Positions 21,001 to 27,000 of a DNA stretch of 64,000 nt are shown one piece after another. Source of the DNA: Polyangiaceae bacterium (GTDB lineage Bacteria > Myxococcota_A > Polyangia > Polyangiales > Polyangiaceae). Made by a program: the position numbers. The first letter of the stretch is position 1, and every line of letters starts with the position of its first letter. The stretch spans positions 14,027-78,026 of the forward strand of contig DATHEQ010000393.1 of the NCBI GenBank assembly GCA_035318505.1, read 5' to 3'.

Positions 21001-24000
21001 AGAAGTCGATCCACTCCTTGCCGGGCTCGCCGTGCTTGTAGATGGTGAGCTCTTCGCCCGTCGGCGTGCGCTCGATGATCTCGACTTTGTACGTCTCGCC
21101 CATCTTGCGGAAAAGGTCGATGACCTCGTCGCGCTTCACCACTTCGCGGCGAAAGGGCGAATTCTTGTTGATGATGGCGAACATCTCTTTTTCGATCTTC
21201 GCCAGATCTTCGTCGGTGAAATGGCCGTCGGGGCGGTCGAAGTCGTAATAAAAGCCGTCTTCGATGGCTGGCCCGATGGTCACCTTCGTGCCGGGGAAGA
21301 GGCGCTGCACGGCATCTGCCATGACGTGCGCGCTCGAGTGACGAATGACCTCGAGCCCCTCTTCGTCGGTTTCGCGGATCACCTCGAGCGGCGCGTTCAC
21401 CGGCACGGGCGTGATCAGATCATAGATCTTCCCATCCACGCGGACGGCGACGACGTCTTTGGCGAGCTTGCCTTCGCGCGCGAGCCGATCGCGCGGGATT
21501 TCGAGGCCCCCCTCCCCTTGAACCGTCACGTCACTCACCCGTAATGCCCCTCTGAAAGGGGCAGGCGAAGCTCTTTTGCAAAAGGTGCTTTGCGGTCAAT
21601 CTCAAGTCTGTTTTTTCAATCACTTAGGAGATCCGAACCGTATCGGCCTCTCCGGTCGTTGCCCCATGTCCCGCCCGGAGCCGTGCGCCGGGGGCAGGGA
21701 AAAATGAGGTCTCTTTGTGAGAGGTCAAGTGCGCTTCGTCGTTTGCCGCACCAAGAGCGGCGCGTCAAGGACGATGCCTCGACCTTCGAGCGCCTTTTCG
21801 CCGCGCGGCGCAACTGTCTCGATTTCAGTGCTCCCGCCGGCGGCGCCTCGCCCATGCCCGAGCGCCTCACCCCCGCCACCCCCATCACCCCGCTGCAATA
21901 GAAGGGATTGGCCGAGGTTGGCGCGTTCGTCAAGTCAGCTCGGTTTTTTCGCGCAGCGACGGCATTGGCGCAAGCGCTCGTCAGCGAGTCCGGTGTGCGC
22001 ACCGATAACGGAGATGGCGTTTTGCGAACACCAATGAGGTCTCCACTAGCGCGACTCGGCGAGGCATGGCGATGCGATCTCTTCTGATCATTCCACTCGG
22101 TATTTTCGCGATCGCCGCCTGCAGCGCCGACCCGGGGCAAAATCACACCGGCGGAGGCGGCGCGAACCGCGACGATGCGGGAGGCGCCGGCAAGGGGGGT
22201 CAGAGCGGAACCGGGGGAGCCGGCGCCACCGGTGGTTCCGGAGGTGGGGGCTCTGGGGGTGGTGGAGCGGGCGGCGGCGTTGGCGGAAGCGCCGGCAGCG
22301 GAGCCACCGCCGGCGTCGGAGGTGGCGGGGGCAGCAGCGGGGCGGGTGGGACCGGCGGAAAGGGCGGCACGGGCGGCGCTGCGGGCACTGGCACGACGGG
22401 AGGCGCCGCAGGAGCAACGACCGGCGCCGCGGGCGGCGCCGCGGGCGCGACGGGCGGCGCTGCCGGCAAGGGCGGCCAAGGCGGGACCGCCGGCACCGCG
22501 GGCTCAGGCGGTGGCGCTGGCAGTATGGACGCGGGTAAGGATGGCACGAGCGGCACGTCGGACGGCGGTCTCACGAGCCGCAAGCGCGGTATCGCGTACG
22601 GTTACCACAGCGACGCCGATCTCACGGCGCTCTCGGCTGGGATCGGCTGGTGGTACAACTGGTCTCCCAAACCCGAGACCACGCTCATGACCGGCTATCC
22701 CGGGCTCGGCGTCGAATTCGTACCCATGGTGTGGGGCGGCACCTTCGACCCCGCCACGCTCGAAAAGCAGGTCCCGGCGGCGGCGAAGTACCTCCTCACG
22801 TTCAACGAGCCCAACTTCGGAGCGCAAGCGAACCTCACGCCGGAACAGGCGGCGGCCCTGTGGCCCAAAATCGAAATGTTCGCCAAGGCGCGCGGCATGA
22901 AAATCATTTCACCTGCCGTCAACTACTGCGGTTCGCCGTGCAACGAGACCGATCCGTTCGTGTGGCTGCAGAAATTCTTCGCCGCGTGCACGGCGTGCCA
23001 GGTCGACTACGTCGCCATGCATTGGTACGCGTGCACCAAGGCCGCCCTCACCACCACCCTCGCCAAATACGAACAGCAATTCGGAAAGCCGCTGTGGGTG
23101 ACGGAGTTTTCGTGCCTCGACGAGAAGGCCAAAGTGAACGACGCCGATGAGCTCGCGTACATGCAGGAAGCCGTCGCCGCGCTCGAGGCCGATCCCATGG
23201 TCTTTCGCTATTCGTGGTTCACGGGGCGCTTCACCAGCACCCCGCCCGTCAACTTGCTCGCTCCCACATCGGGGCAGCTCACGCCGCTCGGGCAAAAATA
23301 CGTGACGCTTCCACACTGACGGCGAGACGCGCGACACGGTTCGCGGCCATCGCGCGGAGAGCCGCGCTCAGTGCGGCAATCGCAGCGAGCGCGCTGCTTC
23401 GACGGTCGATGCGCCGACGCTCGCGGGCAAGCTCGGAAGCAGCGGGGCAATCGCGCCCGGAATGTTGCGCGGATGAATGAGGGCGAGCTGCACGGTGCGC
23501 GACGGCACATCGAGCAAAATGAGGAAATAGCGCAGCCCGTCCGAGGGGCGCCGAAAAGCCGCTCCCGGTCCCTTGCTCGGATTCGACACCGCGCCCTGCG
23601 CTGCTTCGCGAACGTTCGTCTTGTCCATGAGATCGACTTCGGGGCCGATCTTCGTGACGTCGCATTTCGGCCCGCACGGCCCTTCGCCCACGTAGCCGGC
23701 GTAGCCGATCATGTTCGTGCTGAAGATGTCGAGATTCTTGTATTGATTATTGTCGTTGACGACTTCGAAGACGTTGAATTGCCCGCACCCGTCGGCAAGG
23801 GAACTCTTCGTTTGGTCCTTGGCGTAGCACTGGCACGCCTGAAATTGGCCGGCGCGCACGAGCTCGCCCACGCTGAGACCAATCCACGGCGCGTCGTACC
23901 ATCCTCCGGTCGTCGTCGTGGAGCACGCGCCCGGCACCTTGTCGGCATGCGGCATCCCGGCCAGCACCACGAAAAGCTTCGATCCCGTCCAGCCGCGGTG

Positions 24001-27000
24001 CATCTGCTTGCCCGCGGCAGGCGGGCAAAAGGGGGTGCTGCCGGCGCCGCACGCGAAGACGTCGCTCGTCGACACGTTGACGATACACTCGGTTCCGACG
24101 GTGCCAGGGAAGCCGTTCTTTTCGGTGTTGTTGCCGTCGAAGGCGAGACCGCGCGGCGCCGACGGCGAAGCAGCGTCCCACGCCGACACGAGGTTCCAGG
24201 CGCCGCTGCTCGGATCCGGTTGGTAGACGGCCATCTGTTTGACGTCCATCGGACCGCGCAAGGAGACGATCAGATCTTCGTCCCAAGGCGTCAGCGCGTC
24301 GGAGGTGATGTTCGCTTTCGCCATGCAGCAGGTCGAGGATTGAAACGCATCGCACTGCCCGGAGGCAGGATCGCGCCGGCTCGGATACCAACCCGCGGCA
24401 CCGATCGTTTCGAAGGTGATGGTCCCACCGTTGGAGACCGCGTCACTGCCGCCGAAGTCGGGTGCGTCGAAGCCCGCGTCGAGCGCGGGCGGCGTCGTGG
24501 TTCCCGCTTCGCCGTCCGATCGCGTGATCGCGTCACGAACGCTGGAGTCGACGGCGACCGCATCGGTAACATCGCTCGGGGCGCGGTCGTTGTGCGTCTG
24601 GTCGGCCATGGAAGCCTCGCCCACCGGCGTCGAGGAATCAGGGACGCTGCTCGCGTCGGCGGACGAGCCACGGCCGTCGGTCGGGGGCACGCTTGCATCC
24701 ATGGTCGCGCCGGCGTCGGGTTCGGCTCCGCCCCCATCACGGCGCGAGCTCGTCCCCGCGTCGTCACCTCCACACGAGGCGAGAACGAGGCAGAGGGCAA
24801 CGCCGCGCTTTACCATCCAATCGCCACCATCATGTATTGAGGATCGGTGTGCGAAATGTAGCTCGAGTAGCCGCCGACATCGTCGTAAGGAAAGCCGTAC
24901 GCTTTGCCATCGAGCGCGTGAAGGTGCCAGAACCGAGCGTAGTAGTTGGCAGGCGCCGCCGGATAAAACGTCGCACTGTTGGTCCACAGCTTCTTGTCGA
25001 GGAGTTTCCCCGCGGCATCGAAACTACCCGCCACGCCGCCGACGTGGCGATAGATCGCCGCGGAGAGGTCGGGGTACGACCCGAGCCCGCTTCCGTTGGC
25101 GCCGGCCTTGGCGATGGTGATGCCGTTCGCGGACCAGATTTGGTCGATGAAGGCATCGTAGTAATGCTCGTAGGCGCCCCCCGCGTTGAATCCACCCGCC
25201 CCCGGCTCGACGATCCGATACGGCGCATGGGGAGCCTCGGCGAGCGATTGAAACTCGGCGGGAACGGAGTCGAGGAATTTCTGGAACGTGATCGCGCGAT
25301 CGTCGAGAAACGTCTCGTAATCCTCGCCGACCGTCGCCTCGAAGCTGTCCGCGCAATGAAGGCGCATCGCGAGCTTGAGCCCGAAGGCGTCGACCCGCGT
25401 CGTATTGCCGTTGTATTGCTTGGCGCCGATCGTGTGCTCGATGAAATCGAAGTACTTGCTCTTGGTCGGATCGGTTGCGCATGCCGCATCGCCGGTGGCG
25501 CAAATGTAAAAGTACATCCGCCCCGAGGAGTTGGCGGGCATGTCGTAGAGCGGCTGCGCTGCGATCGAATGCGTTTCCGCGATCGCTCCGCTCTTGAAGC
25601 TCCAATACACCTCGCTATCGGCATACTTGCCGTTGGTGCGGTTGAGGAACTTGAACACCATGACGTTCTTGGCCGCGGGGATACCGCTCGGATCCCAGAA
25701 TCCGGGCGGCGGCACCTGGGCGTCGGTACTGGTCACGTCGGAGATGGCAACGTCCGCGCGCGTCGCATCGCTCAGGCTCGCGTCCGTGCGCGGCGCGCTG
25801 GCGTCGCTCACGTCCGCACCGATGCGGGCGTCGCCGCCCGATCCTCCGTCCGTGATGAGGGCGTCGGAGATCGAACCCGCATCGGACGTGCTGTGCCCGT
25901 CCGCGCCCGAGCTCGCATCGACGGAGGGTCCGCCCTCGGGCGTGTTGGCGCCGCCGCCCCCACCCGCGCCGCCGCCCCCGCTCCCGCCGCCCCCACTCCC
26001 GCCGCCCGCGCCATTCGCGTCCGCCGCGCTGGCGTCCTCACGCGCGCCGCGACTGCTCGCCATGGGGTCGGAGCACGCGCCAAGGAGCACACCAAGCACC
26101 GCGAAACTCCGAGCGATGTCGGTGGCTCTCCGCACCCGTCCGGTGATGCTTCTTTTGGGAAAGGTCATGGGTGTTCGCGGCAGCTCGAAAAAATGGTGTT
26201 CGCTCGCGGGACAAATCATTTCGAAAAGAGAAAAATGCGGCGCTTGACGCACGGGGGCCGCTCCGAGCGGCAGATTGCGCCGCCGACGCACAATGTGTGC
26301 AGGCCATCGTCGACGCTGCGCGAGCGCGCTAGGATGCGCGCCCGACGAGGAGGTCTGACCATGGAATTGCCGAAACCGTTCGTGACGCTCATGGAAGGCA
26401 CGTACCGGAAAAAGTAAGTCAAAAATCGTGGCGAGCGCGCGGGCGCTCCCCGCGCATCCCCGAGGAAAGCGAGTCGCTCCATGTCGCTCAAGCTGTACAT
26501 GCACCCCTTCGCGTCGTTCTGCCAAAAAGTGCTGATCGCACTTTACGAGAACAGCACGCCGTTCGTCGCGCACCAGGTCGATCTCGGCGACGAGACTTCG
26601 CGCGCGGCATTTCTGAGCATCTGGCCCGTCGGCCAGTTTCCCGTGTTGCGCGATGAGGAAAAGGGTCGAACCATTCCCGAATCGACGATCATCATCGAAT
26701 ACTTGTCGCAGCATTATCCCGGCCCCGTCGAGCTCGTGCCCGCCGGTCGCAATCTCGCCATCCAAACGCGTCTCTGGGATCGCTTCTACGATCTCCACGT
26801 CGACGAACCCATGCAGAAGATCGTGACCGACAGGCTGCGTCCGGCGGGAAGGAGCGACAGCTTCGGCGTAGAGCACGCAAGAAAGAGACTGCTGACCGCG
26901 TATCGCATCCTCGACGGTGAGATGGCCACTCGGCCATGGGCCACCGGTACCGCGTTCAGCATGGCGGACTGCGCCGCCGCCCCGGCGCTCTTCTACGCAA

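Follow-up and report, generated by a model that had tools for sequence, protein, structure and literature searches.

A putative lipid-anchored beta-1,3-glucanase module with a Tos1-family partner in a Polyangiaceae bacterium and other Myxococcota

The 64,000-nucleotide stretch of DNA analysed here (Polyangiaceae bacterium, assembly GCA_035318505.1, contig DATHEQ010000393.1, positions 14,027 to 78,026; in the following called the window) carries three neighbouring genes, which encode a GH128 enzyme (P0003), a GH64 enzyme (P0001) and a protein (P0002) that we identified as a bacterial member of the Tos1/YJL171C family (DUF2403 + DUF2401). Taken together, our data suggest that the three proteins probably act as a lipid-anchored module for the extracellular degradation of beta-1,3-glucan and that P0002 is most likely a glucan binder that does not cut. 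The family membership of the proteins, their catalytic residues, the translational overlap of two of the genes and the co-location of the genes in other genomes carry this reading. In a preliminary description of the window, P0002 had been noted as a Cys-rich lipoprotein partner of the glucanases. The lipobox and the Cys richness (12 Cys residues in the mature domain) were confirmed, but the protein is not anonymous.

The Tos1-family partner and its catalytic motif

P0002 matched both domains of the Tos1 family in the expected order (PF10290 with 35.3 bits and PF10287 with 30.7 bits at a cut-off of 27 bits each). When the protein was used as phmmer query, oomycete and amoebozoan family members were retrieved at E-values of 1e-8 to 1e-10. 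We found 462 close relatives with the same two domains, for which NCBI uses the name 'DUF2403 domain-containing lipoprotein', and all named ones belong to the Myxococcota (Polyangiaceae, Archangium, Myxococcus, Sandaracinus, Nannocystis, Kofleriaceae). When 1.8 billion representatives were searched exhaustively, only 123 clusters were obtained, and the distant full-length relatives that carry a name originate from the oomycetes Globisporangium and Pythium and from the amoebozoan Protostelium. Searches of NCBIfam gave no match for P0001, P0002 or P0003. With the fungal, oomycete and amoebozoan Tos1 proteins P0002 shares the Cys, RGP, PxxW and GCG...E blocks at 25-32% sequence identity, but in contrast to its eukaryotic relatives it is a predicted bacterial lipoprotein and neither wall-bound nor of the GPI type. 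The AlphaFold2 model of its globular domain is all-beta (pLDDT 83, pTM 0.89), and a sequence search of the PDB with P0002 gave no match. To our knowledge, there is neither a solved structure nor a proven activity for any member of the Tos1 family. Tos1 has been predicted to be a circularly permuted GH16-like beta-1,3-glucanase (Steczkiewicz 2010, as quoted in PMC4176579 and PMC5872309) and this function was still called 'predicted' in 2024 (PMC11657238). In the literature searched, the Tos1 family was not linked to myxobacteria and mentions of DUF2403/DUF2401 concerned eukaryotes only.

Comparison of P0002 with its eukaryotic relatives revealed a difference at the putative active site, which lies on a predicted strand. 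The eukaryotic proteins carry the sequence GCGELDIAE, preceded by a PAxW block, whereas P0002 and the whole myxobacterial clade carry GCGQFNVFE. Thus, P0002 has QxNxxE where both the eukaryotic-type pattern (GCG-E-x-D-x-x-E) and the nucleophile pattern of GH16 (ExDxxE) call for Glu and Asp. A motif census of 157 sequences spanning this region gave QxNxxE in 132 cases, all of them of the myxobacterial type, ExDxxE in 20, ExNxxE in four and ExSxxE in a single sequence. Among 44 aligned sequences, 42 have a Glu at the position of Glu351, and the bacterial clade alone has an additional conserved Asp directly behind the motif (EVVNDNN). In the phylogenetic tree, the bacterial Tos1-like proteins group together in one clade, which a long branch separates from the eukaryotic ExDxxE proteins. 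This clade splits into an ExNxxE and a QxNxxE clade, and every motif state arises once, in one clade each (SH-aLRT 96-100). In addition to the four ExNxxE sequences of the census, a distant member of this sister clade, in which the nucleophile is kept, is encoded in another Polyangiaceae genus (L014, 7756-9096, plus strand); neither a GH128 nor a GH64 gene stands beside it, and its surroundings include genes for a GH9 enzyme and for an MFS transporter.

In the ExDxxE motif of GH16 enzymes, the first Glu functions as nucleophile, the Asp assists and the last Glu serves as acid/base. Read against this motif, the putative acid/base Glu is kept in P0002, whereas the counterpart of the nucleophile is exchanged for Gln and that of the helper Asp for Asn, both being isosteric amides. 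Such changes would keep hydrogen bonding but abolish nucleophilic catalysis. The invariance of QxNxxE down to 55% sequence identity argues for selection and not for decay, and since two of the three motif residues are amides, P0002 is probably not a third conventional glucanase. A bacterial QxNxxE clade of the Tos1 family appears to be undescribed in the literature searched.

We also looked at the relation to GH16 itself. A search of the PDB with the family profile gave a GH16 laminarinase (6JH5) as sole match, at its CGEIDIME motif and with a sub-threshold E-value of 0.92, and the GH16 profile PF00722 did not match P0002. For hhalign comparisons, a GH16 alignment was built from the GH16 genes of this genome and their relatives. 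The full Tos1 alignment matched it with an E-value of 0.02, local to the catalytic strand, and the eukaryotic subset with 3.8e-4 (probability 36%) over the PAxW...GExDxxE block. The beta-1,3-glucan recognition proteins of insects and crustaceans are GH16-type sandwiches, which have lost the catalytic carboxylates and retain, or are thought to retain, glucan binding. A similar loss is found in the inactive GH16-like binder Rv0315 of M. tuberculosis, an 'inactive beta-1,3-glucanase' (PMC4606783), and P0002 resembles these proteins in this respect. However, the lineages are unrelated, the change in P0002 is precise and clade-wide and leaves the acid/base Glu in place, and its gene shares an operon with glucanases that are predicted to be active.

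Glucanases, gene layout and conservation of the cluster

P0003 matched PF11790 (Glyco_hydro_cc) with an E-value of 7e-62 (209.5 bits, cut-off 21) over profile positions 1-237 of 237. Its best solved match was 6UAX (1e-70), and 8J3X (2e-59), 6UAW and 6UAV followed at about 1e-59. GH128 enzymes follow a retaining mechanism. The structures 6UAX (ScGH128_II of Sorangium cellulosum), 6UAV (PvGH128_II) and 8J3X, the curdlan-specific endo-beta-1,3-glucanase CBM6E of Saccharophagus, all belong to GH128 subgroup II (PMC10956234), and the catalytic domain of P0003 aligns with them end to end. The motifs FNEPNF (residues 246-251) and VTEFS (345-349) are intact. E248, E347, H319 and Y321 align with the catalytic E168 and with E272, H245 and Y247 as described for CBM6E (PMC10956234). 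As 6UAX, P0003 has a low-complexity stretch at the N-terminus, which is analogous to its linker. In contrast to CBM6E it lacks a fused carbohydrate-binding module, and it differs from the solved GH128 enzymes by a lipobox, by a 150-residue Gly-rich tether and by the separate beta-sandwich protein encoded alongside.

P0001 matched PF16483 (Glyco_hydro_64; E 4e-31, 109 bits, cut-off 27) and the GH64 chains of the PDB with E-values between 1e-45 and 1e-9 (9VP9 1e-45, 5H9X 5e-42, as well as 5H4E and 3GD0). Enzymes of this family are inverting, with a Glu as acid and an Asp as base, and the solved ones hold multi-stranded glucan and release laminaripentaose. Glu244 of P0001 corresponds to the Glu of 5H9X that is exchanged for Ala in the mutant 5H9Y. 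Together with Asp260 it falls on 'sEyt...tqvDmf' of the LPHase 3GD0, and both residues are invariant in 26 homologues of P0001. The AlphaFold2 model (pLDDT 78, with lower confidence at residues 160-290) shows the two-domain fold of GH64. Its significant Foldseek matches were GH64 structures only, which also made up the top four hits (5H9X with 4e-19 and a TM-score of 0.64, 5H4E with 6e-18, 3GD0 with 1e-7). P0001 shares the Glu/Asp spacing and a C-terminal signature with the laminaripentaose-producing GH64 enzymes 3GD0 (LPHase), 5H9X (PbBgl64A), 5H4E and 9VP9. However, its catalytic region comprises about 300 residues compared with 360-390 in the solved enzymes; in the alignment with 9VP9 two regions are shorter by about 50 and 40 residues. 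A further difference is its predicted lipid anchor, to which it is connected by a linker. This compact form of GH64 is abundant in metagenomes (2,551 matches). The characterised GH128 and GH64 members that were checked are beta-1,3-glucanases (PMC10956234; PDB entry names).

Both genes add ordinary new members to known families, and these results agree with the preliminary description, in which a clan GH-A, GH128-like enzyme with NEP and TEF motifs and a GH64-like beta-1,3-glucanase had been recognised; Pfam placed the two proteins in GH128 and GH64 and not in families with other specificities. The coordinates of the genes and of their features are summarised in Table 1.

Table 1. Features of the gene cluster (positions refer to the window; residue numbers refer to the encoded proteins)
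Feature	Position	Strand	Basis
GH128 (Glyco_hydro_cc) subgroup-II endo-beta-1,3-glucanase gene, predicted lipoprotein precursor (P0003, 417 aa)	22066-23319	+	Pfam, PDB matches; ORF listing and translation
P0003 predicted signal peptide, lipobox IAAC (Cys19)	22066-22122	+	sequence pattern
P0003 Gly-rich linker, residues 20-170 (151 residues, 48% Gly)	22123-22575	+	composition
P0003 acid/base Glu248 (NEP motif)	22807-22809	+	aligns with difference between 8J3X (NEP) and mutant 8J3Y (NQP)
P0003 His319, Tyr321 (HWY; HxY nucleophile-activating element)	23020-23028	+	aligned with 'HcY' of 8J3X
P0003 nucleophile Glu347 (TEF motif)	23104-23106	+	aligned with 'wvTEw' of 8J3X
Tos1/YJL171C-like (DUF2403 + DUF2401) predicted lipoprotein gene (P0002, 482 aa)	23368-24816	-	Pfam; ORF listing and translation
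P0002 predicted signal peptide, lipobox LASC (Cys15)	24772-24816	-	sequence pattern
P0002 Asp/Ala/Gly/Ser-rich linker, residues 16-124 (109 residues)	24445-24771	-	composition
P0002 globular all-beta 12-Cys domain, residues 125-482	23371-24444	-	AlphaFold2 model
P0002 QFNVFE (Gln346, Asn348, Glu351), counterpart of GH16-type ExDxxE	23764-23781	-	alignment, motif census
ATGGTAA, P0002 start codon overlapping GH64 stop	24810-24816	-	sequence read
Compact GH64 endo-beta-1,3-glucanase gene, predicted lipoprotein precursor (P0001, 452 aa)	24810-26168	-	Pfam, PDB, model; ORF listing and translation
P0001 predicted signal peptide, lipobox LGAC (Cys32)	26073-26168	-	pattern; homologue consensus retains 'ACS'
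P0001 Gly/Ala/Ser/Asp-rich linker, residues 33-153 (121 residues)	25710-26072	-	composition
P0001 catalytic pair Glu244 (FDFIEHT), Asp260 (TRVDAF), 16 residues apart	25389-25439	-	alignment
GCGAACACC	22024-22032	+	34-42 nt upstream of GH128 start
GCGAACACC, two copies	26195-26203, 26170-26178	-	upstream of GH64 start

The three open reading frames (ORFs) were found exactly where the preliminary description had placed the cluster (22066-26168). The GH128 gene and the unit formed by the GH64 and the Tos1-like gene are convergent, with a gap of 48 nt from stop to stop. The last minus-strand codons of the GH64 gene read ATT GGA TGG TAA, and the Tos1-like gene starts in another frame with ATG GTA AAG. 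Its ATG (24816-24814) thus lies inside the last GH64 codons, as previously noticed, and the overlap amounts to 7 nt. An identical junction is present in the orthologues of a genome of the same genus (L001) and of a Kofleriaceae contig (L023), and translational coupling of the GH64 gene and the gene of P0002 is likely from this arrangement. A longer version of P0002 (539 aa), which would start at the GTG at 24987, was rejected because the extension lacks a signal peptide and would overlap the GH64 gene by 178 nt; the orthologues, which begin at the overlapping ATG, also speak against this start. The GH64 and the Tos1-like gene are present as single copies in the genome. For the GH128 gene there is one distant GH128-like paralogue (C120:9566-10234), which shares 27% identity with P0003.

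In each of the three proteins, the N-terminal leader is short, basic and hydrophobic and closes with a lipobox (pattern [LVI][ASTVI][GAS]C), and a lipobox-like motif was found in 78 of 105 full-length homologues of P0002. Long Gly-rich or Asp/Ala/Ser-rich linkers follow the lipoboxes, so that this part of the preliminary description was also borne out by pattern and composition. From these leaders we infer that all three proteins are lipid-modified, and they may be exposed at the cell surface. Four canonical GH16 genes are located elsewhere in the genome (L019-L022: C306:30241-30738, plus strand; C306:30912-31337, minus strand; C247:7378-7977; C411:16351-16860). At least three of these four also encode a lipobox and a Gly-rich linker, and this format thus seems to be generally used by the organism for exported glycosidases.

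Next to these structural data the conservation of the cluster was analysed. Among the 15 places examined, a Tos1-like gene is adjacent to a GH128 gene at ten (the window, L001, L002, L011, L015, L017, L023, L024, L025, L026); two contigs were too short to judge. These loci belong to four myxobacterial families and the gene order is shuffled. GH64 is also present at five of them. In the window and in L001, the GH64 gene precedes the Tos1-like gene and both are convergent with GH128. The order is Tos1-like, GH64, GH128 in another Polyangiaceae genus (L011), GH64, Tos1-like, GH128 in the Kofleriaceae contig L023 and Tos1-like, GH128, GH64 in Nannocystis radixulma (L025). A thaumatin-like gene takes the place of GH64 in Nannocystaceae ST9 (L024; thaumatin-like, GH128, Tos1-like) and in Sandaracinus amylolyticus (L017; Tos1-like, GH128, thaumatin-like, with overlaps of 4 nt). 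Three further contigs (L002, L015, L026) carry the Tos1-like and GH128 genes only. Thaumatin-like proteins share a fold superfamily with GH64 enzymes. Between the thaumatin-like proteins of L024 and L017 the sequence identity is 71%, and a weak hhalign match to GH64 fell on the catalytic-Asp motif.

The possibility that these genes are chance neighbours was rejected because their synteny is conserved but rearranged across four families. The conserved co-location rather supports a single functional module, for which beta-1,3-glucan would be the target. The preliminary grouping of the three genes was therefore correct as far as the conserved module is concerned, but its core pair consists of the Tos1-like and the GH128 gene and not of GH64 and its partner. 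A partnership of a Tos1-like protein with GH128 and with either GH64 or a thaumatin-fold protein across the Myxococcota appears to be undescribed in the literature searched.

Two loci deserve separate mention. L026, a contig from ENA, encodes a Tos1-like protein that is 80% identical to P0002. The genes flanking the cluster on this contig (kinase, FGE-sulfatase-like protein, thrS) show synteny with those of the window, and genes for DUF1579 and patatin proteins occupy the position of the missing GH64 gene. This suggests that GH64 was gained or lost recently in this lineage. In Myxococcus sp. AM011 (L018, 9357-11993), the Tos1-like gene is followed by genes for a 496-aa protein without Pfam match and for a GH2_C-like TIM-barrel protein, and from this locus the Cystobacterineae may have a different set of Tos1-like partners.

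Upstream repeats and neighbouring genes

The 9-mer GCGAACACC occurs five times in the window compared with an expectation of 0.96 copies. Three of these five copies, all in sense orientation, precede the start codons of the GH128 and GH64 genes at distances of 2-42 nt (Table 1). In L001 and L026, the orthologues are likewise preceded by the core CGAACAC of the repeat, which is not retained in distant families. With low confidence, the repeat may represent a promoter or operator element that the two units share. A scan of positions 21500-26600 for sigma-70 promoters and terminators gave no promoter and nothing above chance, and a search of the two upstream regions for the sigma-54 consensus gave no hit.

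Between the upstream region of the GH64 gene and a GST gene (26348-26418, plus strand), a strong Shine-Dalgarno sequence (GAGGAGG) precedes an ORF of 18 codons, which encodes MELPKPFVTLMEGTYRKK and ends with a stop codon. The Shine-Dalgarno sequence is conserved in L001, as are the start and the first six codons of the ORF. As judged from the sequence, this ORF could encode a small protein or a leader peptide or be the remnant of a longer gene. The other neighbours of the cluster (thrS, infC, the GST gene and genes for an FGE-sulfatase-like protein and a Ser/Thr kinase) have housekeeping or unrelated functions. The IF3 homologue (18814-19548, minus strand) carries a long C-terminal poly-Asp/Glu tail, DDDDDDDDDEDDDEDE. 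The window is part of a 91-kb contig of a genome of 8.4 Mb in 496 contigs, and the closest named relatives are metagenome-assembled genomes of Polyangiaceae.

Proposed function and alternative explanations

The walls of fungi and oomycetes have beta-1,3-glucan as their main load-bearing scaffold, and the triple-helical form of this polymer resists enzymes. We propose that P0003 would act on this presumed substrate as a retaining GH128 subgroup-II endo-beta-1,3-glucanase and P0001 as a compact inverting GH64 endo-beta-1,3-glucanase. P0002, which would be co-translated with the GH64 enzyme, would be a beta-sandwich related to GH16, in which the substrate cleft and the acid/base Glu are retained and which binds beta-1,3-glucan without cutting it. 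In this way it might anchor the surface of cells or vesicles to the wall polymer, or it might loosen triple-helical glucan for both endoglucanases. The outer membrane or vesicles would serve as anchor for all three proteins, and their long flexible linkers would allow them to reach insoluble wall glucan. There is a precedent for such a helper function: in CBM6E, the subgroup-II GH128 domain is fused to a non-catalytic CBM6, which breaks up curdlan gels and stimulates other glucanases (PMC10956234). However, this helper acts in cis, whereas P0003 lacks such a module and P0002 is proposed to be a separate helper.

Myxobacterial glucanases directed against fungi and oomycetes have been described (PMC10800785, PMC13669512). 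Like the proposed module, they are located at or beyond the outer membrane, attack fungal or oomycete walls and involve several enzymes together. On the other hand, GluM acts on beta-1,6 linkages, and a Tos1-like partner is not mentioned in these reviews. By analogy, we infer that use of the three proteins against living fungi or oomycetes would fit the known myxobacterial glucanases, although it is inseparable here from scavenging of dead glucan. The preliminary description had suggested a surface-tethered module against fungi or prey walls, and our results support this suggestion in outline.

Several observations weigh against the proposed module and against the role we assign to P0002 in it. 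The link between Tos1 and GH16 is a modest one, which is based on weak profile scores (E-values of 0.02 to 4e-4, probability of 36% at most) and on the published prediction. When the model of P0002 was compared with the PDB by Foldseek, nothing was found at E <= 1e-3 and there was no significant GH16 match; the weak matches were ConA-like jelly rolls and sandwiches. A lack of significant matches would be expected if the topology were permuted. The invariant Glu and the extra conserved Asp behind the motif leave room for non-canonical catalysis. In addition, only 7 of 41 related genomes in the family of the window carry a Tos1-like gene; such a patchy distribution indicates an accessory gene, and in Archangium and Myxococcus the Tos1-like gene has neither GH128 nor GH64 as neighbour. 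Finally, beta-1,3-glucan is also a constituent of dead fungal matter, callose, laminarin and curdlan, and our data do not distinguish between predation and scavenging.

Saprotrophic nutrition on free or dead-cell beta-1,3-glucans, including fungal necromass, callose, laminarin and bacterial curdlan, is a distinct possibility. This explanation differs from an attack on living prey in the ecological role only, and the same biochemistry fits both. The four canonical GH16 genes and the second GH128-like gene suggest a general appetite of the organism for beta-glucans, the closest solved relatives of P0003 include curdlan-degrading enzymes of saprotrophs (PMC10956234) and there are no killing or secretion-system genes beside the cluster. 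However, transporter or sugar-catabolic genes are not linked to it either, and lipid anchors and long tethers suit a contact-dependent action on an insoluble wall. Moreover, experiments have connected myxobacterial glucanases with lysis of fungal and oomycete cells (PMC10800785; Li 2019 and Zhang 2023 as cited in PMC13669512).

A second alternative, which we consider unlikely, is that P0002 constitutes a third active enzyme, either a glucanase or a transglycosylase, with a non-canonical mechanism. It might be inverting, with another carboxylate as base, or it might follow a substrate-assisted mechanism on a GlcNAc-containing wall polymer, in which Asn348 and Glu351 would act like the Asn/Glu pair of GH85. 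The almost complete conservation of Glu351 and the invariant Gln and Asn indicate a precise active-site function and not decay, the extra acidic residue in EVVNDNN is conserved in the bacterial clade, and the ExNxxE sister clade retains the nucleophile. Eukaryotic Tos1 is annotated as predicted beta-1,3-glucanase (PMC11657238, PMC4176579). Nevertheless, the residue lost in P0002 corresponds to the textbook nucleophile of GH16, and amide swaps are the route by which crystallographers prepare inactive substrate-binding enzymes, such as the E-to-Q acid/base mutant 8J3Y. We know of no enzyme with GH16 fold that has a substrate-assisted or inverting mechanism, and this counts against catalysis by P0002.

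It is very improbable that the three proteins remodel a polymer of the bacterium itself, such as an exopolysaccharide (EPS) or a glucan of the cyst or spore wall. Beta-1,3-glucan is not known to occur in myxobacterial envelopes. Eukaryotic Tos1 proteins do reside in the wall of their own maker (PMC4664879, PMC11657238) and lipoproteins face the envelope of the cell, but the neighbourhood lacks glucan synthase and EPS genes, and even within a single genus the three genes are distributed patchily, which would be unusual for a core function of the envelope.

The reading of the three proteins as glucan-degrading module with a non-cutting P0002 may be extended to an evolutionary scenario, which we regard as doubtful at present. 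Myxobacteria might have acquired a eukaryotic Tos1 wall glucanase and converted it by the exchanges Glu to Gln and Asp to Asn, with either a non-cutting protein that grips or unwinds glucan or an enzyme with a new GH16-fold chemistry as outcome. This protein, GH128 and a third partner, either GH64 or a thaumatin-fold protein, would then make up a conserved but so far unrecognised three-component module of the Myxococcota directed against eukaryotic walls. If this is true, the acquired Tos1 would be the kind of protein that the prey itself makes.

The GH128 and GH64 glucanases alone would be routine annotations. The bacterial Tos1 clade, however, would offer soluble, non-glycosylated members and a natural variant without nucleophile for studies on this protein family. 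A conserved kit consisting of a retaining and an inverting endoglucanase and a probably non-hydrolytic, GH16-derived partner would show how soil predators open fungal and oomycete walls, and it would supply cocktails of enzymes and helper for biocontrol and for the production of glucan oligosaccharides.

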